Source of the DNA: Anaerolineae bacterium
Lineage (GTDB): Bacteria > Chloroflexota > Anaerolineae > 4572-78 > J111
DNA length: 64,000 nucleotides
Reading direction: 5' to 3'
NCBI GenBank assembly: GCA_020433805.1
Contig: JAGRBZ010000007.1
Location: 249 to 64,248, forward strand
Made by a program: the position numbers and the translations under genes. Positions 2,827 through 20,164 of the stretch are shown here, in pieces (within the stretch, counting starts at the first letter, position 1; each line of letters begins with the position of its first letter). Under the pieces are notes generated by a model. It worked only from the letters and a program-made list of their open reading frames with translations. It had not been told where the DNA came from and made no database searches.

Positions 2827-2886
2827 AATTGAGTACCGATTAATATATTATAACGTCTATCAACCGATTTGGCAAAATTAACCAAA

Positions 2887-2957: not shown

Positions 2958-2967
2958 CTATTTAAGG

Positions 2968-3040
2968 TGCCGAGGCCCAGACTTGAACTGGGGACCCTTT
3001 GATTTTCAGTCAAATGCTCTACCAACTGAGCTACCTCGGC
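2968..3040 (-). tRNA. tRNA-Phe (anticodon GAA)
   Basis: Reverse complement GCCGAGGTAGCTCAGTTGGTAGAGCATTTGACTGAAAATCAAAGGGTCCCCAGTTCAAGTCTGGGCCTCGGCA is a canonical 73-nt cloverleaf with anticodon loop CTGAAAA. Confidence 0.95.
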
Positions 3041-3099
3041 ATAAATAGTTTTAATTAAAACTAAAAGCTTTTTTGTTGCCAACTATATTCAATTTTAAC

Positions 3100-3133
3100 G
3101 ACCGGTAGTATAACATATTGCCTACTACCGGTC
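3100..3133 (-). terminator. Perfect 11-bp hairpin downstream of the integrase stop (possible terminator or protein-binding palindrome)
   Basis: gaccggtagta-taacatattgcc-tactaccggtc. There is no clear U-tract on either strand. Confidence 0.3.
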
Positions 3134-3189
3134 AAATTCTACCCCATTTGCTCCGATTAACCGGCATTAATTATGCTGTTCTTTTGCTC

Positions 3190-4278
3190 TTACTCTTCCA
3201 AACTGTCATCCGGATTTTTAGCACTATAGGCTCTCTTACGTTCAGGATCTTCGCTGTGGGCGTAAATACGCAGCGTCGTATTTGGAGACTTGTGCCCTGC
3301 CTGTTTGCTAACGTGATGAACGGCAATACCATTATTTAGACTGTGGGTAACATGGCTGTGCCGAATTTCGTGGAACTTGTATGGACCTATACAGGCTTCT
3401 TCTTGCCTAGCTTGCCATGCTTGATAGATACCATATTTTGTGAATGGCTTTTTGGACCAACCGTTTCCCTTTGTTCCCAAAAAAACCTGGCCGCCTATGT
3501 CTGGTCGACTTTTTAGCCACAATTCCAAGGAATGTTGGGCCTGCCGACCAAAATAGACGGTACGCTGCTCTTTTGTTTTGGAGGTTTTGGGTTGGATTAC
3601 CGCTTTACCTTCTTTCAGATAAAAGTCGCGCATCCGTAAACCGGCTACTTCGCCGATACGGCAGCCTGTGGCGTAGGTAAAGCGGAGGATAGCTAAATCA
3701 CGAACGGCCCGTTCATAAGGCAAACCGCGTTGTTGAGGTTCTAAATTGACACTAGCTTGTTCCAAATACTTGATCACTTTGACAAAATCTTGGGGGGCAA
3801 TAACACTGGCTTCAACTTTTGGAAGCTTGGGGCGTTCTATTTGCTCCATTGGGTTAAGAATAATGTAGCCAGCTTTTTGAGCCCACTTGAACCAAGCGTT
3901 AAGTCGGACCCAATATTCAGCCAGAGTAACTTTACTGTATTCTTCTTCATTCCGATAGATATCCAAGAATTGGTTCACTTGCTCTATTGTGGGCGGCCAT
4001 TGTGGGGCAAATTCGGCAAAACTAATTAGTAAAGAATGGTAGCAAGTAATTGTACTTTGACTGACCTCTTCACGCTTTTTGTGAGTCTTGAATTTGTCAA
4101 CTAAGACTACTGTAGGCATTGCTACCTGATTATTGAGAGGTTGATCGTGGATGGTACCCGTTTTGACGTCAACAACAACTTGCCTGCCTGGAAAGACCAG
4201 AGTCACCGTCTGATATACTAATGGCACCGCACAAAAATCAAACTGAACTTGTTCATGGCTTAAATGGGTAATATTCAT
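3190..4278 (-). CDS. tyrosine site-specific recombinase (phage-type integrase)
   Basis: Catalytic signature in order: ATGCRIGEV (Arg), HEIRHSHVTH (H-x-x-R), GHKSPNTTLRIYAH (Tyr). An N-terminal SAM-like core-binding region is present. AAGGAGA Shine-Dalgarno. It sits next to the tRNA cluster. Confidence 0.9.
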   Translation of the reverse strand: MNITHLSHEQVQFDFCAVPLVYQTVTLVFPGRQVVVDVKTGTIHDQPLNNQVAMPTVVLVDKFKTHKKREEVSQSTITCYHSLLISFAEFAPQWPPTIEQVNQFLDIYRNEEEYSKVTLAEYWVRLNAWFKWAQKAGYIILNPMEQIERPKLPKVEASVIAPQDFVKVIKYLEQASVNLEPQQRGLPYERAVRDLAILRFTYATGCRIGEVAGLRMRDFYLKEGKAVIQPKTSKTKEQRTVYFGRQAQHSLELWLKSRPDIGGQVFLGTKGNGWSKKPFTKYGIYQAWQARQEEACIGPYKFHEIRHSHVTHSLNNGIAVHHVSKQAGHKSPNTTLRIYAHSEDPERKRAYSAKNPDDSLEE

Positions 4279-4760: not shown

Positions 4761-5627
4761 ATGAACCCTCAAGTCATTTTTCTTCACCCTTTGAATAAAG
4801 AACTTACCGGTGTCGAAGACTTTTACCAGCAATTGATTCAATCGTCCGGAGCGGCAAGTTTTGCTCTTGATTTCGGTCGGGTAACATATATTCAACCTCA
4901 TTACCTTATGGCCCTAAATATTGGGGTTCGTTATCTATTTCACCACAGCAAAAGCCCGATAGGTTTAAGAAATCTGAATGACCAGGTATTGTCCTATCTA
5001 GAGCGCATGAATTTTTTTTCGATCAGCAGCCAATGGATTGAATTACAGGGGAAACTTCTTGAAGATACGTGGAACCGAAATCCCGACACAGATAACTTAC
5101 TGGAATTAACGACCATTGCCAGTGAGGATGACGTTGTACAAATTGTCGAAAGAACAAGACGTGTCTGCGCTCCCCTCAACCTCTCTAACCTGCCACAGAT
5201 ATTGCAAATCCTAAGCGAATTATGTAGCAATGCTCTATATCATAGTGGTGACAACAAAAGCTGCGCTTTAATCCAGCGATATTGGCAACAAAGAAAGCGC
5301 AAAAGACGCGTCGTATGTATTGCCATCGGAGACATGGGGTGTGGAATCCGCGGAAGTCTAGCCACGCGATTTGGCGAATTCGGCAATGAACAGAGCGATT
5401 ATTTATCAGCGGCGCTTGATGGTAAGACCTCACGAGAGACAGGACGAGGGGGCTTAGGCCTGTCTACCATCGAGACAACGGTTGATCAAGAAGGCGGATA
5501 TTTGTGGCTCAGGTCCGAAACTGCGGCGATTTTCAGCCGCGGAAAATATCAGCGCCGAATATCACCTTCACTTTCCGCTATTCCTGGCGCCCAAGTTGTC
5601 GTCGAGTTTAGCGCCCCAATGAAGTAA
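4761..5627 (+). CDS. STAS-like N-terminal domain fused to a GHKL (HATPase_c, RsbW/SpoIIAB-like) ATPase or kinase
   Basis: N-terminus reads FALDFGRVTYIQPHYLMALNIG...LRNLNDQVLSYLERMNFF (STAS-like). C-terminus has N-box ELCSNALYHS, G1 IGDMGCGIRGS and G2 GRGGLGLSTI. No obvious Shine-Dalgarno. Confidence 0.75.
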   Translation: MNPQVIFLHPLNKELTGVEDFYQQLIQSSGAASFALDFGRVTYIQPHYLMALNIGVRYLFHHSKSPIGLRNLNDQVLSYLERMNFFSISSQWIELQGKLLEDTWNRNPDTDNLLELTTIASEDDVVQIVERTRRVCAPLNLSNLPQILQILSELCSNALYHSGDNKSCALIQRYWQQRKRKRRVVCIAIGDMGCGIRGSLATRFGEFGNEQSDYLSAALDGKTSRETGRGGLGLSTIETTVDQEGGYLWLRSETAAIFSRGKYQRRISPSLSAIPGAQVVVEFSAPMK

Positions 5628-5661
5628 TTTGCTCTCCGATACAAAAATTTAGAAAGGCGAT

Positions 5662-5690
5662 TTGACAAATCCACTTTGATTGAGTAAATT
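5662..5690 (+). promoter_or_regulatory. Candidate internal promoter upstream of gene 2 of the cluster
   Basis: TTGACA (5662-5667), 17-nt spacer, TAAATT (5685-5690), inside the 130-nt AT-rich spacer between genes 1 and 2. Confidence 0.3.
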
Positions 5691-5757
5691 GTAGTTACGA
5701 TTTCACTAATTTTAAGTGAATTGACATATAGACACAGTGAATATTCAGGGAGAAAAA

Positions 5758-6348
5758 ATGATAGGATATAACATTAGTCAATTGCAAAATGAGATCGGTC
5801 TTACAAGTGGGCTATTCATTATGCGTTCCAAGGGGGAAAAGGCCTATCCTATTTTAGAAATGCAACTGCAGAGTATCCCTGAAAACGAAGCCCTGGTGGT
5901 GTGCTTTCCCGATGATCAATTAATGGATGTTTCTTTTGCCGATGAAACCATCATCCGGTTGGGCGAAGAAATCGCTGCCAACAAATTCGATCAACGACGT
6001 TTGCTACTGAAGGGATTAACGCCAGACAGCATTGTAAATATTGATCGAGCCATTCGCGGCCAGAAACTCAAACTAGCATTTATCCATATCACTTCCACGG
6101 GGAAGTGGGAGATTATCGGGCATCTTGAACCCAGCCTGCAAGAAGTGCTGGAAATGCTGGCCAACCGCGAGCGAATAACTGCTCCCGAATTGGTTCAAGC
6201 GTTAGATTTGGCTCTCAACACCGCTAATAATCGCCTCAAGAGACTTTTTAACCAGGGCCTCATTCAACGAGAATATGAGGTGTCGGACAAAGGGCTTCTG
6301 TACTATTACCGTTTTCCAATTCCTGTTTCAGATCGAGTTGACCTATGA
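5758..6348 (+). CDS. STAS-like (DUF4325-type) domain plus C-terminal winged helix-turn-helix protein
   Basis: LVVCFPDDQLMDVSFADETIIRLGEEI... has the pattern I recall for DUF4325 STAS-like domains. C-terminal ERITAPELVQALDLALNTANNRLKRLFNQGLIQREY looks like a MarR/wHTH. Start set at ATG 5758 after GGGAGAAAAA. Confidence 0.7.
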   Translation: MIGYNISQLQNEIGLTSGLFIMRSKGEKAYPILEMQLQSIPENEALVVCFPDDQLMDVSFADETIIRLGEEIAANKFDQRRLLLKGLTPDSIVNIDRAIRGQKLKLAFIHITSTGKWEIIGHLEPSLQEVLEMLANRERITAPELVQALDLALNTANNRLKRLFNQGLIQREYEVSDKGLLYYYRFPIPVSDRVDL

Positions 6349-7496
6349 CCAAAGATGCCGATACCCTCTTCAAATATCTTGTCGCTGGACTAATTGAAGC
6401 TGCTGAAACAGATTTTCGATATCCCTATCCGCCGCTCTGGCAGCAAGCTCTGAACATGCTGACTGCCTTCCAGATACGGCATCGGACACCTATACCCAAT
6501 ACACTTACCGGGACCTTGGCATTGTTAGAAGAGCCGATAGGCGAGTGGTGGCCTGGTGAGCTGCCTGAGGCCGTTACCGCTGAATTGGATCAGGATTTTA
6601 CTTTGCTTTTTGGGGGCCAGCCCGATGACTGGGCTTATGAGTTTTTAGAGTCAGAGGGTGTAGCTGGTATGGCAACACTAGCCCAATTTCAGGATGAGAT
6701 TACGCAAACAGGAATGAAGAGACTGCGTGATCTCTACCGGTCCAATGCTGACACTCTGGGTTACGTTTATGTTGTAACCCGTCGATTTATCGTCGAAAAT
6801 CCTGTTACAACCCTGGCAAACATTCAACAGACATTAGGCAATTTACCTCTAATTCGCCTCAAACAAGTGGCCGATTTTTATGAGGCTGAAGACGAATTTC
6901 TGAATGAAGCCTTACATCAAGGCCAGTTCTGGCGGTGTCCCCATTGTCAATCAATTCTGAATTGGGTCGATGGCACTCCCCGGTGTGAGCGTCACAGTGT
7001 GTGTGGCCGTCTTACAAGCGGCTATCGTGCCTGTAAGTTGTTAGCGCCAACAGGTAACTTACTACGATTAAAGCCGAGTATGGTGCGACGGGTGTGTGTC
7101 CCGGGTTTACCAGAAGTTGAGCTGTACGATTGGGCCAAAAATTTACAAACAGCGAATTCCGGACTGGTGAGTGTTTTCCTCTGGCCAGGGGTGGACCGGT
7201 ATGATCTCCAACTTTGTTTTGCCGACAACACCTCCTGGGCGATTGATGTGAAAGATTACGCCGATCCCATCAACCTGGGCCGGCGAGTCAGTAGCCAGTC
7301 GTTCTATAACCTAGGACAACTGCGCTGGGATCAAGGATATTACGTATTTCCTCAGTATCGCGTTGATTGGAATAAAAACTATGTTGAGCTGTTTAACCGG
7401 GCTGCCGAATTATCTATCCAAGTCAAGGGAGTCAGTGAAGTGGATTTCAAGAACCTGGTTATTCGCAAACTTGCTCAATTAACCGAGGACGCCTGA
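6345..7496 (+). CDS. Zn-ribbon plus PD-(D/E)xK restriction-endonuclease-fold protein (pPIWI-RE-associated REase-like)
   Basis: FWRCPHCQS...TPRCERHSVCGR (four-Cys ribbon). GVDRYDL...WAIDVKDY gives a D...D-x-K nuclease core. ATGA start/stop overlap with the upstream gene. Confidence 0.7.
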   Translation: MTKDADTLFKYLVAGLIEAAETDFRYPYPPLWQQALNMLTAFQIRHRTPIPNTLTGTLALLEEPIGEWWPGELPEAVTAELDQDFTLLFGGQPDDWAYEFLESEGVAGMATLAQFQDEITQTGMKRLRDLYRSNADTLGYVYVVTRRFIVENPVTTLANIQQTLGNLPLIRLKQVADFYEAEDEFLNEALHQGQFWRCPHCQSILNWVDGTPRCERHSVCGRLTSGYRACKLLAPTGNLLRLKPSMVRRVCVPGLPEVELYDWAKNLQTANSGLVSVFLWPGVDRYDLQLCFADNTSWAIDVKDYADPINLGRRVSSQSFYNLGQLRWDQGYYVFPQYRVDWNKNYVELFNRAAELSIQVKGVSEVDFKNLVIRKLAQLTEDA

Positions 7497-7499
7497 CCT

Positions 7500-10400
7500 A
7501 TGTTTGACCAACAATGGTATGACTCTCTGAAACGAAAAATTAGTGCTGCCGATATTGATGCTGAAATCGATAATCCCCGCCTGCTGCTGGAGGTTGAACT
7601 CGCATTTCGGTTACTGGAAATAATCGGCTTGACCGATGAACCGGCTGACGTTATCTGGTCGCTATTGAGCACCTTACCTGTGCCTCACCAGTCACTCACC
7701 AACCTGGACAATAACCAAAAACGGGCGCTGGCCAACGCTCGGGTCTTGCTCCATTTTGGACGCTTCGCCTGGCGCGATGCGCTCTACTGGTATAGCAAGC
7801 TACCCGCTCAATGGCGCGTTTACCAGGTTGACGCAGCTCAACCACTCAGCAAACCGGCACAACGCGAACCTAACGGCCCAGCCTATGTGACCAATCGAAT
7901 AGAAATTTACGACAACCTGTTGCATAAAAAACTCAGTTACAATAAACATTCATATGTCTTGGCAGGACCCGGGCGCATCACCTTCCGCACAACCCGCCAA
8001 CGGCCCCGAACAATCACCGTTGATCTGGATGCTGAAATGGTTTCCGCTGCGACAGCCGGGGATACCATCCCTCAAATTAACGGTGAGGAACGACCCCGCC
8101 AACCAATCATTGTGGATTGGGCCGGACTAAGAAACACGGCTGATATGCTGGATCAAAGAGCCGAGGAACGAAAGCCAGATCAAAACTCTGCTAAATGGAG
8201 CTGGCTGCTTGACCAGGTTATCCGGTTGCGATTTGTCGAAAAAGATGGTGGTTTGAGCCAGCTAAATGGCCATCCGCTCAAAATCGAGGGGATGCTGCAT
8301 CTGGCGGGTATGGTTGGCGCCGGTAAATCCACCTTAATGAAGCTGTTGGCCGCGCATGGAGTCCTTTCCGGCAACTGGCGCACCACTCTGGTGGTCGGCG
8401 ATACCATTACCGCCATCAATTTAGCCGATGAATTCAATCATCTTCTCTCTGACGGCAACTCACCGGTTGCGGTGCCCCTCTTGGGTCGCACTACCCGGCA
8501 TCACCATTTGCAGCGTCTTTACCAATCGAACAGCTTCCGCCCTGACCATTGGGGCTTACGCTGGTTGGATACTCGCTGCGCCATTCAGGGTTCTGCCGTT
8601 GAAAATGATCTAAAAGATGGGCCATTACAGCCCGGCGACGAACCATGTGAACGGTTGCAAGCCGGCCCACCTGATAAACCAGGCTCACTGCTACATTGTC
8701 CGCTCTTTGCCTTATGCCCTTCACGCCAACTTTACCACGATATTCCTGAGGCGATGATCTGGATTACAACGCCTGGGGCAATGGCAACATCCCATTTACC
8801 GGTAGCAACTGACCGGCGTCAGATGCTTTTAGGAGAGATGATTTACCATGAGGCAGATCTTGTAATTTTTGACGAGGTTGATACGGTTCAGCAATGGTTT
8901 GACAACGTCTATGCCTCCGACCAGTGGCTACTCGACGGGGGCCAGGGGCTGCTTGACGTGATGGATGTCAAAACCATCGAGGGTCTCAATCGCGGCTATC
9001 AAATCTCTCGACAGGGGCAGCGCTGGATTACGGCCGAACGGAGCGCCCGGCAGGTCGCCGAACAAGTATGTAGTATGCTGCGCGACCAGGCCGTGTTACG
9101 GGAGTGGCTTGGCGACCGCTACTTCACCGCGCACCGTTTATTTTTTGATTTAGCCTATCGTTTGCAGGTGAAGAGATCGGATGCTGATCAGGAAAAGATT
9201 AATCGGGTAGCTCTGGATTATTTTGACCAATTTCGCCGTGGATCTATTCTCCATCCGGGCGATAGCTATAACAAGGAACCGCTATCTCGACTTCTGGCCA
9301 TTGCCGACCAGGTCTTGGCCCGTGGCGGCAGTCTGGTTGATCGGGAGCGGGTTTTAGCTTTATGCAAGCAATGGTTAGAAGAATATGTACCTGATTCTAA
9401 GGCCATTGCCGGCCAACTGGCGCTTGAAAAAGCAGCCTGGCTTGAGAAGTGGCAGCATCGATCAGCGCGTCGAACCAGAAAACGGCCACCCCCTATGCCT
9501 GATGACTTGGAGACGTTGGCCGTCAGGCTTGAACTGGCGATTTCGGTCGCTATCCTTGAGGAAATGGTGCGAATCACCTTTGATGGTTGGCAACATGCAC
9601 CCTTGTTTATCACCAGTCAGATTGCCGATGATTATCGCTTGAGTCGCATTCCGCGTGACCTGGCCGGTGTCTTGCCCACCTCACCCACCGGTAGTCTCTT
9701 CGGATTTCAATACCTGGAAGAAGCTGGAGCCAGCCCGGATACAGCGGATGGTGAACAAATTCCGCTGAAAGTTCGCAGATTTTCTACGTTTCAATATCGC
9801 AACATCGGCCGCTGGTACGTTGAACACTTCCATGAATTACTCAGTGACCTTGGTTATCCCGGCCCTAATGTGTTGGCCATGTCCGGCACATCCTGGCTTC
9901 CTGACTCGGCAACATGGCATTTTTCGGTTGAACCCGCCGCTGTCCTGGAACCCACAGCGCACAGCCAGCAGGCCATCGAGACCAGCAAATTCTTCTTCAG
10001 GCCGGCTCGAGACAACGAGGGTAAACCCATCTTTGTGTCAGGCAGCGGGCGTTTGAGACAACAACTGGCTTTATTGGGCAAACAGTTGGCCGGCTATCCA
10101 GCCCCAAAGCAAGCTTTTTTGCTGCAAGAGTTGAAACGCCTCACCAATTTAGCCGAGCAGCAGCCGGAAGTGTGGGGCGACCGGGTTCGCCTACTCCTGT
10201 TCGTAAACTCATATGAGCAGGTACAGCCGGTGATGCAAGCCATCTTGAGCCAGCAGCCAGAGTGGAACCAGTTAACCTATGGACTGGTACGCAGTGCCGT
10301 CCCAACCCAGTCGAATGAATGGCAGTGGGCCAGGCTGGATGGTCAGACATTTATTAAGCATGATATAGAGCAATTCGGCCAGACTCAGGGTAACATTCTG

Positions 10401-11000
10401 GTTGCGCCGCTGCAGGCCATTGGTCGTGGTTACAATATTCTCAATGAAAACAATGTTGCTGCCTTTGGAACCGTATTATTTTTGACCCGACCAATGGCGC
10501 CTCCCTTTGATATGCAGGCTCGAGCCCAATGGCTAAACTGGTGTGTCCTGAACAAATGCGGCAGATCTGACGATGAACTTTGGCAGGGAAAAGTAGGCTT
10601 TCACGAAAAAGCTGAAGTCTTGCGTGACTGGGCGCATGATGAGTGGGATAGCTATGATGCCGCCCGCCGATATCAGGATTTGGATGATAAGCGCAAAAAC
10701 GATCTAGCCGCCTCGATGGCCGGTCTTATTATTCAAGCTTGTGGCCGGTTGTTACGGGGAGGTGTTCCGTTTCGGGCGTATTTCGTTGACGCGGCCTGGG
10801 CACCCCATACGGCCACAGGCAATAGGTCTGACACACTTGAAACCAGTCTACTCTTGAGGATGATTTACCTACTAAACTATTATTGTCAAAAGCCAGTCGG
10901 ACAAGCTTTATACGCACCCTTGGCCAGGTCTTTAAACCAAATAGAAGGGCTGGCCAAGCTTGAAACCATTAAAGATGAACCACTTTTAGTAATGGAGTAA
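7500..11000 (+). CDS. Large SF2 (DinG/XPD-like) helicase, pPIWI-RE-associated type
   Basis: Walker A AGMVGAGKST (nt 8304-8333). Walker B VIFDEVD (nt 8862-8882). Motif VI-like QACGRLLRGG lies near the C-terminus. Four Cys (aa 360, 383, 400, 406) lie between motifs I and II. Starts 4 nt after the previous stop. Confidence 0.8.
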   Translation: MFDQQWYDSLKRKISAADIDAEIDNPRLLLEVELAFRLLEIIGLTDEPADVIWSLLSTLPVPHQSLTNLDNNQKRALANARVLLHFGRFAWRDALYWYSKLPAQWRVYQVDAAQPLSKPAQREPNGPAYVTNRIEIYDNLLHKKLSYNKHSYVLAGPGRITFRTTRQRPRTITVDLDAEMVSAATAGDTIPQINGEERPRQPIIVDWAGLRNTADMLDQRAEERKPDQNSAKWSWLLDQVIRLRFVEKDGGLSQLNGHPLKIEGMLHLAGMVGAGKSTLMKLLAAHGVLSGNWRTTLVVGDTITAINLADEFNHLLSDGNSPVAVPLLGRTTRHHHLQRLYQSNSFRPDHWGLRWLDTRCAIQGSAVENDLKDGPLQPGDEPCERLQAGPPDKPGSLLHCPLFALCPSRQLYHDIPEAMIWITTPGAMATSHLPVATDRRQMLLGEMIYHEADLVIFDEVDTVQQWFDNVYASDQWLLDGGQGLLDVMDVKTIEGLNRGYQISRQGQRWITAERSARQVAEQVCSMLRDQAVLREWLGDRYFTAHRLFFDLAYRLQVKRSDADQEKINRVALDYFDQFRRGSILHPGDSYNKEPLSRLLAIADQVLARGGSLVDRERVLALCKQWLEEYVPDSKAIAGQLALEKAAWLEKWQHRSARRTRKRPPPMPDDLETLAVRLELAISVAILEEMVRITFDGWQHAPLFITSQIADDYRLSRIPRDLAGVLPTSPTGSLFGFQYLEEAGASPDTADGEQIPLKVRRFSTFQYRNIGRWYVEHFHELLSDLGYPGPNVLAMSGTSWLPDSATWHFSVEPAAVLEPTAHSQQAIETSKFFFRPARDNEGKPIFVSGSGRLRQQLALLGKQLAGYPAPKQAFLLQELKRLTNLAEQQPEVWGDRVRLLLFVNSYEQVQPVMQAILSQQPEWNQLTYGLVRSAVPTQSNEWQWARLDGQTFIKHDIEQFGQTQGNILVAPLQAIGRGYNILNENNVAAFGTVLFLTRPMAPPFDMQARAQWLNWCVLNKCGRSDDELWQGKVGFHEKAEVLRDWAHDEWDSYDAARRYQDLDDKRKNDLAASMAGLIIQACGRLLRGGVPFRAYFVDAAWAPHTATGNRSDTLETSLLLRMIYLLNYYCQKPVGQALYAPLARSLNQIEGLAKLETIKDEPLLVME

Positions 11001-11006
11001 GATAGC

Positions 11007-13613: not shown

Positions 13614-13640
13614 TCATCAAGCTTAATCCAGGAGACCGAG

Positions 13641-16600
13641 ATGTCTATCCATCTCTACCTTGCCCCAGCCGGGGCCGGTAAAACCGATTATCTAATTGAG
13701 CAAGCTCGCCAGGTCGTTGGGGATTTGTCCACAACCGTGCGCGTTTGTGTCCCCAGCGGACTACAAGCCCAAGTCTGGAAACGCCGATTAGCGGCAGCGG
13801 GTGGCGCGTTGGGGGTGCGGGTGCAGCTCTTTTATGAACTCTATATGGAATGCCTGGATGCCGTGGGCCAGCCATACATCGAACTGAGTGAGCCGGTCCA
13901 ATACCGGCTGCTCCAGGCCACTGTTGATTCCCTGCCCTTAACCTACTACCGTTCCCTCAAACGTCGTCCCGGCTTTATCTCGCTCCTGCAAAATCTCACT
14001 GGAGAATTGAAGGCCGGGCGAATTGATCCTGATTTATTGTCAGCGGCCATCACCCAATTGGGCAACGAAAATCGCCTGGCCGAACTTGCCCAAATTTACG
14101 CCGCTTATCAGACCCAATTGCAGGCCCGTCACTGGACCGACCGGCCCGGCCTGGGCTGGCTGGCCGTAGAAGCGCTGGCTAACCGGCCAACTCTGCCCAC
14201 TTTTACCGACTCCGTGCTGTGGGTGGACGGGTTCGACAACTTCACACCCATGCAGATTGATTTTTTGAAAGAAATCGCTCAGCAGACCCAGCAATTGGTC
14301 ATTACCCTGACCGGCGCTGGCAGACCTACCCGGCCGCTGGTGCATCGTCGTTTCGAGCAAACGCGAGCGCAGCTGGAGGCCGCCCTGCACGTTTCAGCGG
14401 AGCCGCTACCGGTCAGACCACGCCGTTGCCACCCGGTGCTAGCCCACCTGGAAGCCCAGCTGTTCAAGTCGTCTCAGGACTCAGTGCTCGGCGTCGAGGT
14501 CGTGAGCCTGATTGAAGCACCCGACCGGGTCGGCGAGGTGCGCAGCGCGTTACGCTGGCTCAAAAAACGGCTCATTATGGACGGCTTGTCTCCCGGTCAG
14601 GTCGCCCTACTGGCCCGCTCAATTACCCCTTATCGCCCCTTCATCAGCCAAGTCGGGGTCGAGTTTGGTTTGCCCCTGCACCTGATGGAGGGTCAGCCGT
14701 TGCGCAGTAATCCGGCCGTAGCGGCCTTGCTCAATCTGTTGCGGCTGATGCTGCCAGCTTCGGCGACCGATCCCAGGCCGGCGCTGCCTTACCCGCTGGT
14801 ACTTGAAGCCTGGCGGTCACCCTATTTCGATTGGGCAGCCCGGCCAACCCTCGAAGCCGAAGAACCGATTGGAATTGAAGCCGGTGACGCTGCGTTACTG
14901 GCCAACGTTGCCCGCCAGGGGCAGGTGTTGGCGGGCCAGCGCCAATGGCTGGAGGCCTTTGAGCCGTTGACCCGGCGAGACCAGGCTGCCCAAGAAGTCG
15001 GGTTGCCTGACGCCGCCACCGCCCACAAACTTCAGACCATATTTGAGCGATTTATCCGGCGCCTGACGCCGCCGGAGGCAGCAGTTAGCCTGCGCGACTT
15101 TGCCGGGTGGCTGGAAGACCTAATCGGGGCCGACCCGCAGTTTGCGCTACGTTTTTCACAACCCGACCCGGCTGCCCCCATCTCGCTCAAGGTGATTGAC
15201 CGTATCCGGGCCGAGCTAACGACGGCCGCCCGCGACCTGGCCGCGCTCCAGCAACTCAAAGAGATTTTGCGCGGTTTGGTCTGGGCCGAAACTGCCATTA
15301 CCCCAAACCAATCAATGACCTTTAGCCAGTTTTTTGACGAGCTGGCCGGCGCTATTGAAGCCAGCAGCTACTTGCTGCCGTATGACCCGGCTGAGGAAGC
15401 CATCCTGGTCGCCGATGTGGTTCAGGCCCGCGGGGTGCCGTTTCAGGCCGTGGCCGTACTGGGCCTGGCTGAAGGCGAGTTCCCTACCCGCTTAAGCGAA
15501 GACCCGCTGCTGCGGGACAGCGACCGCTTCCGTTTGAACCAACTGGGTATTCCGCTTCGACCTTCCACCGAAAGCGCCGAGATCGAGTTCTTTTACGAAA
15601 CTATTGCCCGACCCTGGGATCAACTCCTGCTGACCCGCCCCCGCCTGGCCGACAATGGCGCGCCCTGGCAGGCCTCCCCATATTGGGAAGAGGTCATCAA
15701 ATTGGTCAAAGTCACCCCCTTGCCCCTGACTCAGGAGCGTTTGCCCCGGCCTGACGAAGTCGCCTCCTGGCCCGAGCTGATGGAGAGTTTGGGACGCTAC
15801 GCCGGTTACGCAGTAGTCAAGCAGTGGATCGCCGAGACCAACCCCGTACGGCAGACGGCTGTGGCTGCAGCTGCCCAAACAATGGCGCAGCGATTGGCCC
15901 AGGCAACGGGCAGTCTGTTTGACGGCAATCTGCACGCCGCCACTGCTGACCTGGCCAATGAGTATGGTCCCACCAGAATCTGGAGCGCCAGCCGTCTGGA
16001 AGATTATCGCACTTGCCCCTTTCTCTTTTTTGTCAGACACCTGCTGGGCGTTGAACCTAGAGGCGAACCGGAAGAAGGGCTGGACGCCCGCCAATTGGGC
16101 CGAATTTACCACGATACTTTTGAAAAGCTTTACCAATCCGTCCTTGACCCGACTGACCTGGAGGAATTGCTGGAAGCGTTGCCGGAAATCGGCGGCGCGA
16201 TTCTGGATAAGGCTCCGGAAAAGGAAGGTTTCCGGGCAACGGCCTGGTGGTCGCAAACCCGGCAGACTATTTTGGACAATGTGCAGCGCTCATTGATTAA
16301 ATTGGCCGAACTGGCCGGCGATTTTGAACCCCTGGCCTATGAGCAGCGTTTTTTTGAACCGGACATGCCGTTGACCCTTCGCGACGGCGATGATTACTTC
16401 CAGCTGCATGGAGTGATTGACCGGATCGACCAAGGGCCAGATAAAACCCTCCGCCTGATCGACTACAAAACCGGCGGTTCTTATGGCTATGATGAGGCTG
16501 CCATTCGAGAAGGGAAAAAGCTGCAACTGCCCCTTTATGCGCTGGCCGCGCAGGAAGCGTTGGAGCTAGGCCAGGCGGTGGATGGCTTTTACTGGCACAT

Positions 16601-16823
16601 CCACCAAGCTGAAGCCAGCCGTTTTAGACTGGCGACGTTCCGAGGCGAGTTTGCCAGCGGGCCAGAGGCGGCGATGCAGGTTGCGGTTGAGAAGGCCTGG
16701 GAAGCGGTGCGGGGGGCTCGAACTGGCCACTTTACACCCCAGCCGCCGGCTGGTGGCTGCCCCACTTACTGCCCGGCCGCGAGCTTTTGCTGGCACTATC
16801 ACCCGGCCTGGGGAGGACGCTGA
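13641..16823 (+). CDS. addB: AddB/RexB-like helicase-nuclease subunit (PD-(D/E)xK nuclease with Fe-S Cys cluster)
   Basis: N-terminal Walker A APAGAGKT. C-terminal SASRLEDYRTCPFLFF, DRID...LIDYKTG nuclease core and GGCPTYCPAASFCWH (1 + 3 Cys layout as in AddB). AGGAGA Shine-Dalgarno. Confidence 0.85.
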   Translation: MSIHLYLAPAGAGKTDYLIEQARQVVGDLSTTVRVCVPSGLQAQVWKRRLAAAGGALGVRVQLFYELYMECLDAVGQPYIELSEPVQYRLLQATVDSLPLTYYRSLKRRPGFISLLQNLTGELKAGRIDPDLLSAAITQLGNENRLAELAQIYAAYQTQLQARHWTDRPGLGWLAVEALANRPTLPTFTDSVLWVDGFDNFTPMQIDFLKEIAQQTQQLVITLTGAGRPTRPLVHRRFEQTRAQLEAALHVSAEPLPVRPRRCHPVLAHLEAQLFKSSQDSVLGVEVVSLIEAPDRVGEVRSALRWLKKRLIMDGLSPGQVALLARSITPYRPFISQVGVEFGLPLHLMEGQPLRSNPAVAALLNLLRLMLPASATDPRPALPYPLVLEAWRSPYFDWAARPTLEAEEPIGIEAGDAALLANVARQGQVLAGQRQWLEAFEPLTRRDQAAQEVGLPDAATAHKLQTIFERFIRRLTPPEAAVSLRDFAGWLEDLIGADPQFALRFSQPDPAAPISLKVIDRIRAELTTAARDLAALQQLKEILRGLVWAETAITPNQSMTFSQFFDELAGAIEASSYLLPYDPAEEAILVADVVQARGVPFQAVAVLGLAEGEFPTRLSEDPLLRDSDRFRLNQLGIPLRPSTESAEIEFFYETIARPWDQLLLTRPRLADNGAPWQASPYWEEVIKLVKVTPLPLTQERLPRPDEVASWPELMESLGRYAGYAVVKQWIAETNPVRQTAVAAAAQTMAQRLAQATGSLFDGNLHAATADLANEYGPTRIWSASRLEDYRTCPFLFFVRHLLGVEPRGEPEEGLDARQLGRIYHDTFEKLYQSVLDPTDLEELLEALPEIGGAILDKAPEKEGFRATAWWSQTRQTILDNVQRSLIKLAELAGDFEPLAYEQRFFEPDMPLTLRDGDDYFQLHGVIDRIDQGPDKTLRLIDYKTGGSYGYDEAAIREGKKLQLPLYALAAQEALELGQAVDGFYWHIHQAEASRFRLATFRGEFASGPEAAMQVAVEKAWEAVRGARTGHFTPQPPAGGCPTYCPAASFCWHYHPAWGGR

Positions 16824-19800
16824 TGGTGTTTCACCCTATCGTGCAGCAGTTATCGCCTAGTGAAGAACAAACCCCGGCTATTCTGGCTCGCAACCAGGAA
16901 GTGGTAGTCACCGCCGGCGCCGGAACCGGCAAAACCCGGACGCTGGTAGCCCGCTATCTGGCCTTGCTCAGCGAGGGAACGGGGCTGCGCAGCATTGTGG
17001 CTATTACGTTTACCCAAAAGGCGGCCCGGGAAATGCGCAATCGCCTGCGGGATGCCATTCGCGAATATCTGGACCGAACTGACTTATCCGAGGACGAGCG
17101 GGGCTTATGGCAAGCGCATTACAGCACGCTCGATGCGGCCCGGGTCAGCACCATCCACAGCCTGTGTGCCGAAATCTTGCGCGCTCATCCCGCTGAGGCT
17201 GGCCTTGATCCTCGCTTTGAAGTACTGGAGGAAGGGCTGACCAACGTCTTGCGAGAACAGGTCATTGCCGAAAGCCTGACCTGGGCGGCCAATCAGCCGG
17301 AGGTAGTCTCGCTGTTTGGGCTACTGGGCGAGGCGGTGTTGCGCCGCACCCTGGCGGTGCTATTAAACCGGCGGCTTGAAACCAGCGCGATTTTTGCCAC
17401 GATGCCGGATAACCTCATCGAACATTGGCACCAGCACCTGAGCCAGACTCAGGCCCAGGTGTTGGCCGTATTGACCAGCAGCACAGCCTGGCAGGCCAAC
17501 CTCGAAACCCTACGACAAAACGAACCAACGAATTCAGCCGACAAATTAGAAGCCCATCGCCAGACGGCGTTAGCCGTGGCGGCTAACCCGACCGGCTTGC
17601 TGGCCCATCTGGACACCATTAAGCTGAATGTTGGCAGTCAGAAAAACTGGCCAGGCGGGGCGGAACAGGTGGCTGAGGTTAAAGCAGCCTTGAAAACCAT
17701 CCGTGAGCTGTGGAAGAAAGAAAAACAATTCTTATTATTGGCCTTGAATGAATTGGACGAGACAGCAGCCGACGCCTTGCCCCGGTTGCGCCGGTTGTTT
17801 CAGTACGGCCATGATCGTTTCATTGCCCTGAAAGAAGCTCAAAACAGCCTTGATTTTGACGATCTCGAGGATAAGACCTTGCGCCTGTTACGTGACCAGG
17901 AAACGGTCCGCCAGCGTTGGCAGCGCGACATCCAGGCCATTCTGGTCGACGAGTTTCAGGACACCAATGACCGCCAGCGAGACTTGGTGGCATTGCTCAA
18001 TGGCGACCAGGGCAAATTGTTCATTGTTGGTGATGCCAAACAATCGATCTATCGCTTTCGCGGCGCTGATGTCAGCGTTTTTCGAGCCGAACGAGACGAG
18101 ATAGTGGCCCGGGGCGGGCAACACGTTCCGCTTGAAACGTCGTATCGGGCCCACAGCGATTTGATTGAGGGCATGAATGAATTGTTGGCCCCGGTGCTGG
18201 GTCGCGCTGCCGACCCGACACGCCCCTGGCTTGAGCCGTTTTCGGCGCTAGAGCCGCATCGCCAAGTAGCCGGCCAGGGCTTCACGGCGCCGCATATCGA
18301 GCTCCATCTCACGGTCGGTAGCAAAAGCGACGGTGCTCTGGACCACGCCGCCAGCGTGTTGGTCAATCGCCTGATCGAACTCGTTGAAGCAGAGGAAATC
18401 TACACCGGTGTAGGTGATAAGGCTCGCCGACTGGATTACGGCCATGTCGCCATCCTGTGCCGCTCATCCACTTCCTTCGCAGCCTATGAGGATGCGCTGG
18501 AAGCAGCCGGCATTCCGTTTTTAACGGTGGCCGGGCGGGGCTTTTATGAGCGGCCGGAAATTCGGGATTTGCTCAATGCCTTGCAAGCCATTGCCGACCC
18601 GACCGACGACTTGGCCCTGGTGGGGCTGCTCCGCTCACCGGCTTTCTCCCTCTCTGATGAAGGGCTGTATCGCCTCCACCAGGCTCGAACCCAGACATCA
18701 AGCTCATTTTGGGAAACCCTCACCTCAAGCGCACTCCATCTGTCTGAGACAGAAAAGCTGCGCCTTGATCGGACCAGGCCCATCATTGACAGGCTGCACC
18801 GCCAGGTGGGCCGTATGCCGGTCGCGGATATTCTGAAGCAATTTCTGGATGAGACGGATTACCGCGCCGCTTTGATCCAAATTGGCCAGCAGCGCAGCGC
18901 CCGCAATGTTAGCAAGTTGCTGGCCGATGCCAACACCGCGGAGTTAGTCAGCGTCAATGAGTTTCTAGCTTATATTAATAACTTGCGTGACAGTGGTAGT
19001 CGTGAAGGTGAAGCCCGGACTCCGGCTGAAGGGGCAGTGCAATTGTTGACTATTCACGCTGCCAAAGGGTTGGAATTTCCGGTCGTGGCCCTGGGCGATG
19101 TTAGTTACAAACCTCCAACCTGGCAAGAAATTCTAATTGACCCCGAATTGAGCCTCTTGATCCCTCATCGGGATGAGGAGAAAAATATAGCGGCCAGTTA
19201 TCTACTGGGCAATCGTACAGACAGCGAGCAGGAGGAGGCCGAATTCAAGCGCCTGCTATATGTGGCCGTTACCCGGGCCGAAGAAAAGGTGCTGTTGAGT
19301 GGAGCCATTAGCTTGAATAAGGACAATAAACTTAAGCGGGCCAGCGGCTGGTTGGCGCTGCTAGCCGAAACCGACAATCTGGGGTTGGGGGATCTGACCA
19401 TTGAACATAATGAGACCGGTGACAAAGCCATTGAATTGACATTAAGCGTGGGACAGAGTCCGGTGAGGTGCACCAATTACGAGCCGGGCTACAGTTTCAC
19501 GCAATCTGGTCGTATCGCCACGGTTGAGCCGGAGATATTGGCTCCGGTGCCGCCGCCTTTGCTCGATCCTGTGACTGTGTCAAAAGCACCGCTTCCGGCT
19601 GAGCGACTACCGCGTATCGCCCGAGTCGTTTCGTCGGCGGTACGCCGGCGTGCGCCGGCCTGGGTGGTGGGGGATTTAACGCACAAAGCCCTGGCGACCT
19701 GGCGTTTTGGCGAGGATGGCTTCGAGGTTTGGCTGGCAGCCCAGGCCCGCAATTATGGTCTGACGGATAATGAGCAGGTCACCGATGCTGTTCAAAAAGC

Positions 19801-20164
19801 GCAGCAAATGTTAGGGCGGTTCCAAAGCCACGAATTGTACCACAGGATGAACAGCGCCGAGCGCTGTCTGCACGAGGTTCCTTATAGTCTGCCCGTGGAC
19901 GGCGCCGTGGAGTCAGGCAGAATGGATGCCTTGTTTCTTCAGGACGATACGTGGCACGTGGTTGAATTCAAAACTGATGCTGTGCGTGACGAGTCTGAAC
20001 GAGAGAGGGTGCTGGCCCAAACCGATTATCTGGCCCAGGTTCAGCGTTACCGGCAGGTAATTGAGGTCATGCTGGGCCAGAAGCCGAAAATCATTTTCTG
20101 CTGGCTCAACTATGCCGGTCGGGTTGAGGTGCGGACTGATTTACGTAGTAAAACAGAAGCTTGA
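16823..20164 (+). CDS. addA: AddA/UvrD-like helicase-nuclease subunit
   Basis: TAGAGTGKT, ITFTQKAAREMRNR, ILVDEFQDTN, FIVGDAKQSIYRFRGA, TIHAAKGLEFPVV, LLYVAVTRAEEKV. C-terminal RecB-type nuclease GRMDALF...HVVEFKTD. Start set at ATG 16823 (TGATG overlap with the addB stop, GGGAGGA Shine-Dalgarno), not the ORF-track start 16787. Confidence 0.9.
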   Translation: MVFHPIVQQLSPSEEQTPAILARNQEVVVTAGAGTGKTRTLVARYLALLSEGTGLRSIVAITFTQKAAREMRNRLRDAIREYLDRTDLSEDERGLWQAHYSTLDAARVSTIHSLCAEILRAHPAEAGLDPRFEVLEEGLTNVLREQVIAESLTWAANQPEVVSLFGLLGEAVLRRTLAVLLNRRLETSAIFATMPDNLIEHWHQHLSQTQAQVLAVLTSSTAWQANLETLRQNEPTNSADKLEAHRQTALAVAANPTGLLAHLDTIKLNVGSQKNWPGGAEQVAEVKAALKTIRELWKKEKQFLLLALNELDETAADALPRLRRLFQYGHDRFIALKEAQNSLDFDDLEDKTLRLLRDQETVRQRWQRDIQAILVDEFQDTNDRQRDLVALLNGDQGKLFIVGDAKQSIYRFRGADVSVFRAERDEIVARGGQHVPLETSYRAHSDLIEGMNELLAPVLGRAADPTRPWLEPFSALEPHRQVAGQGFTAPHIELHLTVGSKSDGALDHAASVLVNRLIELVEAEEIYTGVGDKARRLDYGHVAILCRSSTSFAAYEDALEAAGIPFLTVAGRGFYERPEIRDLLNALQAIADPTDDLALVGLLRSPAFSLSDEGLYRLHQARTQTSSSFWETLTSSALHLSETEKLRLDRTRPIIDRLHRQVGRMPVADILKQFLDETDYRAALIQIGQQRSARNVSKLLADANTAELVSVNEFLAYINNLRDSGSREGEARTPAEGAVQLLTIHAAKGLEFPVVALGDVSYKPPTWQEILIDPELSLLIPHRDEEKNIAASYLLGNRTDSEQEEAEFKRLLYVAVTRAEEKVLLSGAISLNKDNKLKRASGWLALLAETDNLGLGDLTIEHNETGDKAIELTLSVGQSPVRCTNYEPGYSFTQSGRIATVEPEILAPVPPPLLDPVTVSKAPLPAERLPRIARVVSSAVRRRAPAWVVGDLTHKALATWRFGEDGFEVWLAAQARNYGLTDNEQVTDAVQKAQQMLGRFQSHELYHRMNSAERCLHEVPYSLPVDGAVESGRMDALFLQDDTWHVVEFKTDAVRDESERERVLAQTDYLAQVQRYRQVIEVMLGQKPKIIFCWLNYAGRVEVRTDLRSKTEA

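Follow-up and report, generated by a model that had tools for sequence, protein, structure and literature searches.

Seven co-directional genes are packed together on the plus strand of a 64,000-nucleotide stretch of Anaerolineae DNA (hereafter the window), and the question they raise is whether they make up one composite defence system, with a STAS/GHKL pair at its head and a dedicated AddAB helicase-nuclease at its tail, as a first-pass annotation had proposed. All seven ORFs are found where that annotation had placed them (Table 1), and so are their junctions, namely a 4-nt ATGA overlap between capS and gene 3 (6345–6348), gaps of 3 nt (7496 to 7500) and 6 nt (11000 to 11007) on the two sides of gene 4, a gap of 27 nt between the PIWI gene and addB (13613 to 13641), and a TGATG overlap between addB and addA (16821–16825). 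Two of the starts were revised: that of gene 7 was corrected to the ATG at 16823, in agreement with public gene calls, and gene 2 probably begins at ATG 5758 (196 aa) rather than at GTG 5737.

Table 1. Features of the capKS–pPIWI-RE–addBA locus (positions within the window)
Feature	Coordinates	Strand	Remarks
tRNA-Asp/Gln/Phe cluster, then tyrosine integrase	2753–4278	-	ARAGORN; Pfam Phage_integrase, E 4.6e-26
Gene 1, capK-like	4761–5627	+	
Predicted sigma-70-like promoter	5662–5690	+	TTGACA, 17 nt, TAAATT; consensus scan, 10/12 matches
Putative CapS operator	5702–5741	+	Palindrome TTCAC-N9-GTGAA (5702–5720) and third GTGAA half-site (5737–5741)
Gene 2, capS-like	5758–6348	+	ORF opening at GTG 5737
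Gene 3, pPIWI-RE REase	6345–7496	+	Y domain and restriction-endonuclease-fold domain
Gene 4, pPIWI-RE DinG-like SF2 helicase	7500–11000	+	Z domain and helicase with Fe-S cysteine cluster
Gene 5, pPIWI-RE protein	11007–13613	+	X, MID and RNase H/PIWI domains
Gene 6, addB	13641–16823	+	AddB-type; Walker A, C-terminal PD-(D/E)xK nuclease, four cysteines
Gene 7, addA	16823–20164	+	ORF 16787/16823–20164; UvrD-type SF1 helicase, C-terminal RecB-like nuclease

By their sequences, genes 1 and 2 are homologues of CapK and CapS, that is, a predicted STAS-GHKL serine kinase and a predicted STAS-winged HTH (wHTH) repressor. CapK/CapS has been described as a DNA-damage-sensing kinase and repressor pair (EMBO J, June 2026; PMC13373217), a modular regulator that precedes many immune operons and turns the adjacent one on in response to DNA damage. 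Gene 1 matches HATPase_c in Pfam (E 6.5e-9), and its GHKL motifs, the N-box (E153, N157), the G1 box (D191-x-G193-x-G195) and the G2 box (G228–L234), are invariant in 17 homologues. When its family profile is compared with E. roggenkampii CapK by hhalign (probability 96.1%, E 3.3e-9), residues 59–284 align with 116–364 of CapK, and N157 stands opposite the active-site N218. Unlike Enterobacter CapK, gene 1 has no N-terminal HTH and no counterpart of W68, which is needed for activation by single-stranded DNA (ssDNA). Gene 2, which contains a winged HTH, matches the solved CapS structures of V. cholerae (9Z72, E 6.6e-6) and E. roggenkampii (9Z71, E 3.1e-5) across both domains in a phmmer search of the PDB, and its family profile matches CapS structures with E 1.4e-11. 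In the alignment, its S66 falls on the phospho-acceptor serine (S54/S58), and all 40 sequences compared keep it; the AlphaFold2 model (pLDDT 90.6) places a wHTH after an N-terminal domain of alternating strands and helices. Thus, the STAS domain assigned earlier to both proteins holds for gene 2, given this homology and the confident model, and is partly supported for gene 1, whose profile aligns with the STAS-GHKL portion of CapK and which gives a single weak match to the STAS protein TM1442 (E 0.43).

The homology rules out the idea of a new STAS/GHKL pair and bears out, by analogy, the earlier suggestion that the pair gates an adjacent system; the pair itself has already been published (PMC13373217). 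Among the relatives surveyed, at least four kinds of module are found downstream of it: it precedes pPIWI-RE in the window, in L005 and L007, and in Nostoc (L019), lies about 3 kb upstream of pPIWI-RE with four other genes in between in L122, and elsewhere stands before Bub-like E2/E1/JAB genes, SWIM/MoxR/VWA genes, or an uncharacterised two-gene module (about 1160 and 770 aa). Since it has also been published upstream of many immune operons, the pair is neither specific for pPIWI-RE nor undescribed.

The capK–capS spacer is where experiments have placed the palindromic operator of Enterobacter CapS, and here, too, it bears a predicted promoter, followed by a putative operator whose TTCAC/GTGAA half-site differs from the TTAA of the Enterobacter protein. 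In relatives, -10-like TATAAT/TATATT elements occupy the same position relative to the operator. The exact palindrome occurs once in the 64-kb window (5702–5720) and in 28 of the 123 loci examined, as one copy per locus (two in L017), being absent from the other 95; it lies 35–117 nt upstream of a capS homologue in 27 loci, and L123 has the same promoter-operator pair immediately ahead of its REase gene. Because capS overlaps gene 3, pPIWI-RE is probably transcribed from the CapS-controlled promoter.

Genes 3–5 were recognized at the outset as a pPIWI-RE module of the kind predicted computationally by Burroughs et al. (2013), and this is confirmed by Pfam and PADLOC matches in a textbook composition. 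Gene 3 matches pPIWI_RE_REase (E 8.3e-22), pPIWI_RE_Y (E 9.4e-9) and PADLOC PprRE (E 1.1e-21), and gene 4 matches PprDinG (E 7.6e-126) and pPIWI_RE_Z (E 1.6e-26), its Walker A (G270–K276), D458-E459-x-D461 and cysteines C360, C383, C400 and C406 being invariant in five diverse homologues. Gene 5 carries the RNase H/PIWI fold expected of it (RNaseH_pPIWI_RE, E 7.4e-35), along with pPIWI_RE_X (E 2.5e-38), MID_pPIWI_RE (E 7.1e-9) and PprPIWI (E 8.4e-79), and its invariant R737 and E815 are spaced like R639/E718 of PsPIWI-RE. In the alignment, the first RNase H strand ends with Y607 and not with an acidic residue, so the PIWI protein may lack catalytic activity. In Aulosira and Streptomyces, the plasmid-borne pPIWI-RE modules consist of three genes only.

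Genes 6 and 7 are, from their sequences, an intact AddB/AddA pair with all predicted catalytic motifs present. In AddB (PDDEXK_1, E 1e-39; ADDB_N, E 3e-18), the residues G13/K14/T15, D927, D941/K943 and the cysteines C792/C1040/C1044/C1050 do not vary among 33 homologues; in AddA (UvrD-helicase, E 7.6e-61; UvrD_C, E 1.1e-26), conservation across 36 homologues is 95% or more for Walker A, DExQ and the C-terminal motifs D...VEFKTD and Q..rY, and the NCBIfam matches to addA_Gpos (E 4.8e-100) and addA_alphas (E 8.1e-86) lie under the equivalog cut-offs.

The pair was thought to be dedicated to the system, and several observations speak against this and most likely mark addBA as the housekeeping helicase-nuclease genes with which the lineage itself processes double-strand breaks. 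AddB falls within the ordinary Chloroflexota radiation: homologues with 52–62% identity are found by the hundreds in Chloroflexota/Anaerolineae, and a neighbour-joining tree of 70 AddB proteins groups the system-linked sequences in a single clade inside this diversity, on a short stem and with branches of ordinary length. The composition of addBA is native, with GC3 of 0.66 (addB) and 0.63 (addA) against 0.60–0.68 for backbone genes of the window, unlike that of genes 1–5 (0.44–0.55). The sister lineages L009 and L119 have the gene order sbcD-sbcC-addB-addA, and B. subtilis has addB-addA-sbcD-sbcC. Moreover, no homologues of genes 1–5 are found in the flanks of 79 of 80 metagenomic AddB loci, and relatives without genes 3–5 (L008–L010, L119) do carry addBA, although they have capKS. 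Outside one clade, pPIWI-RE and capKS loci also lack AddAB, which is neither a required nor a general part of either, and a single seven-gene system is not established.

The tRNA cluster and the integrase (GC3 0.41) probably form the left edge of a low-GC island carrying capKS and pPIWI-RE; no att direct repeat was found in a search for one. The explanation we favour, with moderate confidence, is a CapK/CapS-regulated pPIWI-RE operon on this island, lying directly before what is most likely the lineage's own addBA. Counting against it, the PIWI–addB adjacency appears from sequence comparison to be better conserved than that of casual neighbours. Wherever a PIWI relative of at least 48% identity could be placed, addBA directly follows it, in four lineages (window/L006; L005/L007; L118; L122=L056/L123) whose AddB proteins share only 49–62% identity; the spacers are 27–81 nt in three of them, and the identity patterns of REase, DinG, AddB and AddA are congruent. 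Across lineages, GC3 is 0.47–0.58 for pPIWI-RE versus 0.48 to 0.74 for the adjoining addBA, which simple vertical co-inheritance does not explain. In the sister lineage (L008–L010, L119), a capKS-headed system begins about 80 nt after addA, so that all members of the AddB clade whose context is known adjoin a capKS system. The parts are already known; the conserved arrangement of CapKS, pPIWI-RE and addBA is new.

A true functional composite, which we hold to be rather unlikely, would account for the persistence of this adjacency across four lineages that have diverged from one another, and for spacers that are short and free of terminator-like sites. AddAB would resect broken phage, plasmid or damaged DNA into single-stranded fragments that activate CapK, and read-through after de-repression would raise addBA in a positive loop; the fragments might also serve PIWI-RE as guides, in parallel to the RecBCD-dependent guide acquisition of CbAgo-type Argonautes, or AddAB might finish degrading REase-cut targets. 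The coupling is plausible by analogy because a CapKS reporter in E. coli is induced less strongly by mitomycin C and by levofloxacin when recB is deleted; ssDNA of about 20 nt activates CapK (PMC13373217). In addition, capKS directly after addA resembles the published order of R-M, then capKS, then immune operon (88 of 443 loci; PMC13373217), P. stutzeri cells without piwi-re are ciprofloxacin-sensitive, and cooperation of pAgo with RecBCD or a Cas4-family nuclease has been reported (bioRxiv 10.1101/2020.03.01.971358; PMC12094033). However, the association is limited to one AddB clade: addA and addB are absent near the pPIWI-RE modules of Nostoc, Aulosira and Streptomyces and near 27 capS loci of species-representative genomes (flanks up to 10 kb per side), and L013, whose capKS module matches that of L010 (89% identity), has no addBA in the 8.4 kb upstream of capK. 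The change in GC3 from PIWI to addB speaks for separate histories, and a housekeeping AddAB could supply ssDNA from any genome position, which makes adjacency unnecessary for the proposed function. With adjacency kept in four lineages and recB contributing to induction, a functional link may still exist.

Much less probable is that the addBA of this clade is a defence-dedicated paralogue moving in defence islands with capKS-headed systems, a separate housekeeping end-processing enzyme being encoded elsewhere. Defence genes, including capKS systems, ZacABC, BREX-like genes, SNF2/SACS and nSTAND3, do flank addBA on both sides in all ten clade contigs with known context (about six lineages), and the block in the window is bounded by the tRNA–integrase junction and a transposase, beyond which lies another integrase. 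The short stem and ordinary branch lengths of the clade, the backbone-like GC3, the sbcDC–addBA synteny typical of repair loci, and the conservation of all helicase, nuclease and Fe-S motifs speak against a paralogue, as does the lack of a second AddB-like gene in any locus examined.

For the favoured CapK/CapS-regulated pPIWI-RE operon before resident addBA, a course of events can be proposed from experiments on the Enterobacter and Vibrio CapKS. CapS dimers would bind TTCAC-N9-GTGAA just downstream of the spacer promoter and repress capS and, owing to the 4-nt overlap, the REase, DinG-like helicase and PIWI-RE genes as well. DNA damage or phage attack would generate ssDNA that activates the CapK kinase, and phosphorylation of S66 would dissociate the CapS dimer and turn the operon on. 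According to the prediction of Burroughs et al. (2013), PIWI-RE, here possibly inactive as a catalyst itself, would then recognize a guide/target (RNA–DNA) hybrid on invading DNA, the DinG-like helicase would unwind it, and the REase would cut. The PIWI–addB adjacency would be inherited within one Anaerolineae clade, where addBA occupies a defence-island hotspot. As addBA lies 27 nt after the PIWI gene, with an AGGAG ribosome-binding site of its own and no terminator-like site in the gap, it is probably read through from the induced CapS-controlled promoter.

The seven same-strand reading frames that the first-pass annotation had claimed are all present on the + strand, and the junctions it noted are borne out: an ATGA overlap at 6345-6348, gaps of 3 nt, 6 nt and 27 nt, and a TGATG overlap at 16821-16825. 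On three metagenomic contigs with the same DNA, the public gene calls agree with these frames and place the AddA start at the ATG at 16823. An AGGAG ribosome-binding site lies in the 27-nt gap between the PIWI-RE gene and addB; nothing terminator-like was found in the window near this gap. The regulator (2026), the pPIWI-RE module (2013) and AddAB are each already known; new here are the pairing of capKS with pPIWI-RE in two phyla, the putative operator TTCAC-N9-GTGAA, and the clade-wide contact of capKS-headed systems with addBA. In the best-supported reading, pPIWI-RE forms an operon under CapKS control, sits on an acquired island and has come to lie upstream of the native addBA, at a defence hotspot; read-through into addBA is probable. 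The features are listed in the table, where loci named with L are fetched relatives, 123 in all.

Coordinates of features in the window and in related loci (locus coordinates for the latter)
Feature	Locus	Coordinates	Strand	Remarks
tRNA-Asp/Gln/Phe cluster and tyrosine integrase	window	2753-4278	-	left edge of the low-GC block
Gene 1, capK homologue	window	4761-5627	+	
Sigma-70-like promoter	window	5662-5690		
Putative CapS operator	window	5702-5720		sole exact copy in the window
Third GTGAA	window	5737-5741		
Gene 2, capS homologue	window	5758-6348	+	
Gene 3, REase	window	6345-7496	+	
Gene 4, DinG-like helicase	window	7500-11000	+	
Gene 5, PIWI-RE	window	11007-13613	+	
Gene 6, addB	window	13641-16823	+	
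Gene 7, addA	window	16823-20164	+	
1038-aa protein	window	20426-23542	+	N-terminal DUF4297/LmuA-like (Cap4-type nuclease) region, nSTAND3 NTPase; GC3 0.37
DDE transposase	window	23787-24650	-	just ahead of the 2187-aa gene
2187-aa protein	window	25527-32090	+	N-terminal Mrr-type restriction-endonuclease domain, TPR repeats; GC3 0.36
Second integrase	window	32351-33364	+	high GC3, 28 kb rightward
Promoter and putative operator	L123	60-180		
PIWI-RE	L005	6052-8667		
PIWI-RE	L007	6063-8669		
ZacA/ZacB/ZacC homologues	L010	3504-9965		PADLOC E down to 0
Matching three-gene set	L122	19267-22655		DUF6361, unnamed protein, helicase
tRNA array	L005	20186-22998		
Module B	L008	18579-23189		
Module B	L010	18517-23189		
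Module B	L013	10306-16133		
Module B	L119	16296-20902		
Module B	L011, L012, L015, L018, L033, L034			

Genes 3-5 are the pPIWI-RE triad, as had been proposed: Pfam and the PADLOC models PprRE, PprDinG and PprPIWI agree, and the order reported by Burroughs, Iyer and Aravind in 2013 is kept. Gene 3 matches pPIWI_RE_REase (E 8.3e-22), pPIWI_RE_Y (E 9.4e-9) and PADLOC PprRE (E 1.1e-21), while gene 4 matches PprDinG (E 7.6e-126) and pPIWI_RE_Z (E 1.6e-26) and bears a Walker A motif, DEVD and four invariant cysteines. The expected PIWI/RNaseH fold of gene 5 is found as well, since pPIWI_RE_X, MID and RNaseH_pPIWI_RE all score above the Pfam cut-offs, and the family arginine and glutamate (R737, E815) do not vary across nine diverse homologues. 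The order of REase, DinG-like helicase and PIWI-RE is strict, with spacings of 3 nt and 6 nt; this order with overlapping or very close termini is shared with the 2013 module (PMC3702460), and the Y, REase, Z, X, MID and RNaseH_pPIWI_RE domains and the invariant R and E are all present. The window module differs in being headed by a separate two-gene kinase/repressor, whereas HTH domains are fused to the REase in the 2013 module (PMC3702460), and in being directly followed by addBA, which is seen in the linked AddB clade only, i.e., the clade holding the pPIWI-RE-adjoining copies.

pPIWI-RE was predicted computationally in 2013, and only part of the family retains the RNase H catalytic residues (PMC3702460). 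The literature searched yielded one biochemical study and no account of pPIWI-RE control; that study reports RNA-guided DNA nuclease activity for the PIWI-RE of P. stutzeri and ciprofloxacin sensitivity for the knockout (PMC10991935). In nine aligned sequences from gene 5 and its relatives, no acidic residue ends the first RNase H strand (LTVIGLY607RRR), and the catalytic aspartates are not evident in gene 5, in contrast to D525 and D610 of PsPIWI-RE (PMC10991935); gene 5 may belong to the catalytically inactive subset described by Burroughs et al. A word-indexed protein search returned only six PIWI relatives, plasmids yielded just two loci by tblastn with gene 5, and a DinG-based scan of viral contigs found no relative. 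The PIWI-RE proteins of L005 and L007 share only 56% identity, though their CapK (91%), CapS (93%), DinG (81%), REase (79%) and AddB (89%) are much closer; the L007 PIWI is nearer to that of L118 (62%) than to that of L005, which points to the PIWI alone having been replaced or diverging very fast in these loci.

The two leading genes are homologues of a recently described regulatory pair, as judged from profile alignments and conserved residues. CapK and CapS ("controller of associated pathways"; Chambers et al., EMBO J 2026) comprise an HTH-STAS-GHKL kinase activated by ssDNA of ~20 nt and a STAS-wHTH repressor; CapK phosphorylates a conserved STAS serine of CapS, the phosphorylated CapS dimer falls apart, which lifts the repression of capS and of the immune operon downstream (PMC13373217). 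The window shares with this system a GHKL kinase gene with a STAS-wHTH repressor gene right behind it, ahead of an immune operon, a layout found in at least 19 related loci, as well as modularity over different downstream systems. PADLOC (2023) and NCBIfam, both older than CapKS, offer no names for genes 1-2, and their weak DrmA and Csa3 matches were dropped as domain-level noise.

For gene 2, a profile of 40 homologues matches PDB 9Z72/9Z73 and 9Z71 over its full length (E 1.4e-11); these are the CapS proteins of V. cholerae and E. roggenkampii that Chambers et al. published on 9 June 2026 in EMBO J (PMC13373217). The single sequence matches too (9Z72, E 6.6e-6; 9Z71, E 3.1e-5), and both cover residues ~30-192. 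The homology extends to both domains and includes the phospho-acceptor serine: S66 of gene 2, invariant in the 40 sequences, is aligned with S54 (E. roggenkampii) and S58 (V. cholerae), and D64-x-S66-F67 pairs with D-S-S-F in 9Z71 and D-A-A(S58A)-F in 9Z72. An AlphaFold2 model of gene 2 (pLDDT 90.6) retrieved only wHTH proteins with Foldseek from a PDB copy ending in April 2026, which predates 9Z71-9Z73.

A family profile of 17 gene 1 homologues matches E. roggenkampii CapK, taken from the source data of PMC13373217, with an hhalign probability of 96.1% and E 3.3e-9 (~24% identity by profile comparison). The kinase motifs are common to both: the GHKL boxes are invariant in the family, and the active-site N218 of CapK pairs with N157. 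The alignment begins within the STAS region, leaving the first half of this domain outside, and the match to the TM1442 STAS domain is weak (E 0.43); STAS-to-STAS hhalign of the gene 1 and gene 2 families gave no match (probability 0.1%), so the STAS domain of gene 1 is read from the CapK alignment only. An AlphaFold2 model of gene 1 built without an alignment was unusable (pLDDT 33). Gene 1 is shorter than CapK (288 aa vs 368 aa), starting at about CapK residue 60, and lacks the N-terminal HTH, which is dispensable in CapK, where its deletion has no effect (PMC13373217). W68 of CapK, needed for ssDNA-stimulated kinase activity, finds no Trp counterpart: placed by offset because the N-terminal part is unaligned, the first 20 residues of gene 1 and the family consensus there contain no Trp, so that ssDNA sensing by gene 1 is only inferred by analogy with CapK. 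The basic patch around CapK K237/K239 has a counterpart in RKRKRR at 176-181.

Like CapK/CapS loci, the window has a putative palindromic CapS site overlapping a promoter in the capK-capS spacer. The DNA bearing the putative half-sites (TTCACTAATTTTAAGTGAA) contains TTCAC-N9-GTGAA, which lies just after the -10 element of a sigma-70-like promoter; the half-site TTCAC/GTGAA with 9-nt spacing differs from the TTAA of Enterobacter CapS. The exact motif occurs at 28 loci, 35-117 nt upstream of capS in 27 of these, and is missing from the other 95. The separate downstream promoter and "wide palindrome" of CapK/CapS loci are absent here because capS overlaps the first effector gene; this overlap leaves pPIWI-RE without its own promoter region, so that it should be transcribed from the autoregulated promoter in the capK-capS spacer. 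In L123, no capS stands between the REase gene and the regulatory DNA directly before it, which has a TTGACA/TATTCT promoter, a copy of the TTCAC-N9-GTGAA operator and a further two GTGAA half-sites; the contig begins 176 nt upstream of the gene. In L122, an 88-90% relative of L123, capKS lies 3 kb upstream and is followed by four other genes, including one for a trypsin-like protease.

An alignment scan of species-representative genomes with gene 2 gave 27 loci in Chloroflexota, heterocystous cyanobacteria and one Rhizobium-labelled MAG. Clustering of the neighbouring genes defined four cargo classes: module A, pPIWI-RE, in the window, L005, L007, Nostoc L019 (whose REase and helicase share 23-25% identity with those of the window) and L122 with its more distant capKS; module B, proteins of ~1160-1280 aa and ~770 aa without a family match, in nine loci; module C, a fused Prok-E2_A/ThiF/JAB protein (Bub-like), mainly in cyanobacteria; and module D, a SWIM/DUF5691/MoxR/DUF5682/VWA set, in eight loci. 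Neither the pPIWI-RE cargo nor the Chloroflexota and heterocystous cyanobacterial hosts appear in the main text of the CapK/CapS paper, which likewise does not mention PIWI, Argonaute, DinG or AddAB, all 443 CapKS loci being in its Dataset EV2 (PMC13373217). The range of CapKS is widened to Chloroflexota and cyanobacteria, with a new operator sequence and new cargo including the two-gene ~1160/~770 aa module. Module B is capKS-headed in nine or more Chloroflexota loci and falls into two subtypes with 28% identity between them; Pfam and PADLOC give no match for either protein, only a weak ResIII hint for the larger. Module B stands as a candidate CapKS-regulated system, so far uncharacterised. 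For L008-L010, the idea that the large proteins behind capKS are divergent DinG/PIWI was rejected: BLASTP was not significant, and Pfam and PADLOC gave no hits. At the module D loci (L022-L024, L026, L028, L030, L032, L037), a capS homologue and the conserved operator precede the SWIM/DUF5691/MoxR-AAA/DUF5682/VWA set; in most of them, BLAST finds no capK homologue upstream, and other genes occupy its place.

AddAB of the Bacillus type is a functional analogue of RecBCD. Judged by their motifs, genes 6-7 are an intact AddB/AddA pair: AddB has ADDB_N and PDDEXK_1 domains with invariant GKT, D927, D941/K943 and four cysteines, and AddA, encoded beside it, is a UvrD-type SF1 helicase with a C-terminal nuclease. 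The overlapping stop and start codons, the Walker A motif, PD-(D/E)xK nuclease and four-Cys cluster of AddB, the UvrD-type motifs and C-terminal nuclease of AddA, and the adjoining sbcDC in sister lineages are all as in AddAB systems. Both proteins miss the NCBIfam equivalog cut-offs (AddB 139.8 bits vs 903.7, AddA 336 vs 707), but the addA/addB_Gpos and addA/addB_alphas models were built for Gram-positive and alphaproteobacterial subfamilies, so the low scores reflect the divergence of a Chloroflexota subfamily rather than another kind of enzyme. Unlike Bacillus-type AddAB, the pair of the linked clade always stands amid defence genes, and it is probably co-transcribed with the defence operon.

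Several observations argue that addBA is the native, ordinary copy of the lineage. Chloroflexota AddB homologues number in the hundreds (52-62% identity); a metagenome scan gave 80 AddB loci with AddA next wherever the contig permits, with unrelated flanks and no conserved synteny around addBA, and a homologue of any of genes 1-5 near only one of the 80 (L056). The system-linked AddBs group as a single clade nested among the others in a 70-sequence neighbour-joining tree, and their branches are of ordinary length. GC3 is 0.66 in addB and 0.63 in addA, within the 0.60-0.68 of the window's backbone genes, compared to 0.44-0.55 in genes 1-5 and 0.36-0.37 in the downstream defence genes; the low-GC stretch starts at the tRNA cluster and tyrosine integrase, and the order sbcD-sbcC-addB-addA is found in L009 and L119.

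The proposal of one undescribed composite seven-gene defence system is not established: AddAB co-occurs with pPIWI-RE and capKS only within one AddB clade. None of the 27 capS loci has addA or addB within the flanks covered, pPIWI-RE stands at one of the 80 AddB loci, and outside the linked clade the capKS loci and the pPIWI-RE loci, those of Nostoc, Aulosira and Streptomyces included, have no addAB nearby. Within the clade, addBA follows every placeable PIWI relative of at least 48% identity (four lineages; six PIWI relatives from the word-indexed search), at an interval of 27 nt in the window and L006, 42 nt in L122 (the same as L056), 51 nt in L123, 424 nt in L118 and two small genes in L005 and L007; AddB identity across the linked lineages is 49-62%, and REase, DinG, AddB and AddA all group alike. 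The sister lineage (L008-L010, L119) lacks pPIWI-RE; there, a capKS-headed module B or another module starts ~80 nt past addA, and addB is preceded by different genes from locus to locus (SACS and SNF2, BREX-like genes and SbcCD, or ZacABC). L013 has module B at 89% identity and no addBA within 8.4 kb upstream of capK. The Zac homologues lie directly upstream of addB in L010, and a matching three-gene set lies directly downstream of addA in L122; the Zac-type set is another system recurring at the addBA hotspot.

The main rival to a CapKS-regulated pPIWI-RE island beside native addBA is a functional coupling of AddAB with capKS-pPIWI-RE. Published work lends it substance: recB deletion in E. 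coli lowers CapKS induction and CapKS is commonly sandwiched behind a DNA-cutting R-M system (PMC13373217), and Argonautes cooperate with RecBCD or Cas4-family nucleases (bioRxiv 10.1101/2020.03.01.971358; PMC12094033). AddAB resection of broken invader or damaged DNA would release ssDNA fragments as the CapK-activating signal; the de-repressed promoter would yield pPIWI-RE and, by read-through, more AddAB in a self-amplifying loop; and AddAB might feed PIWI-RE with guides or destroy REase-cut targets. That AddAB has been wired into an immune circuit of the linked Anaerolineae clade in all these capacities, as CapK signal source, read-through output, and guide supplier or target destroyer, seems rather unlikely; if true, it would be the first core recombination enzyme serving as both the sensor input and the co-transcribed output of an Argonaute-family defence operon. 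A PIWI-fold protein with a genetic or functional tie to a PD-(D/E)xK end-processing nuclease or helicase is also found in the long-A pAgo whose guide acquisition depends on RecBCD and in pAgo with the ACE1 Cas4-family nuclease (bioRxiv 10.1101/2020.03.01.971358; PMC12094033). This likeness goes no further than analogy: the pPIWI-RE proteins are distant members of the PIWI fold, they bring an REase and a helicase of their own, and the candidate nuclease partner here is a full AddAB. In most lineages (window 11007-16823; L122, L123, L056, L006, L118), GC3 rises by 0.09-0.20 at the PIWI/addB junction, a step that long vertical co-inheritance does not readily explain; pPIWI-RE holds at 0.47-0.58, and the adjoining addBA spans 0.48-0.74 across lineages.

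Even with AddAB as a mere neighbour, the locus is a useful example of how a core repair operon can anchor a defence hotspot. The occurrence of pPIWI-RE under CapK/CapS in two phyla together with the conserved operator suggests that pPIWI-RE is kept off until DNA damage appears, an arrangement that would do away with the self-toxicity problem posed by the REase. The repeated capKS-addBA contact, taken with the lower CapKS induction in recB-less E. coli, raises the question whether ssDNA made by AddAB/RecBCD is the physiological CapK signal; another is whether PIWI-RE depends on end-processing enzymes, as some Argonautes do.

As to the island borders, the two window integrases share only 24% identity, a search at the borders for att-like direct repeats of tRNA-region sequence found none, and relatives show no tRNA-addB synteny. 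The 1038-aa protein directly past addA is, by its domains, probably a separate single-gene STAND-type defence protein, and the 2187-aa product weakly matches the PIN domain of the TPR-GreAB-C-PIN system. In L005 (Chloroflexota MAG GCA_016860845.1), 20 tRNA genes are packed into 2.8 kb, ~3.7 kb downstream of addA.
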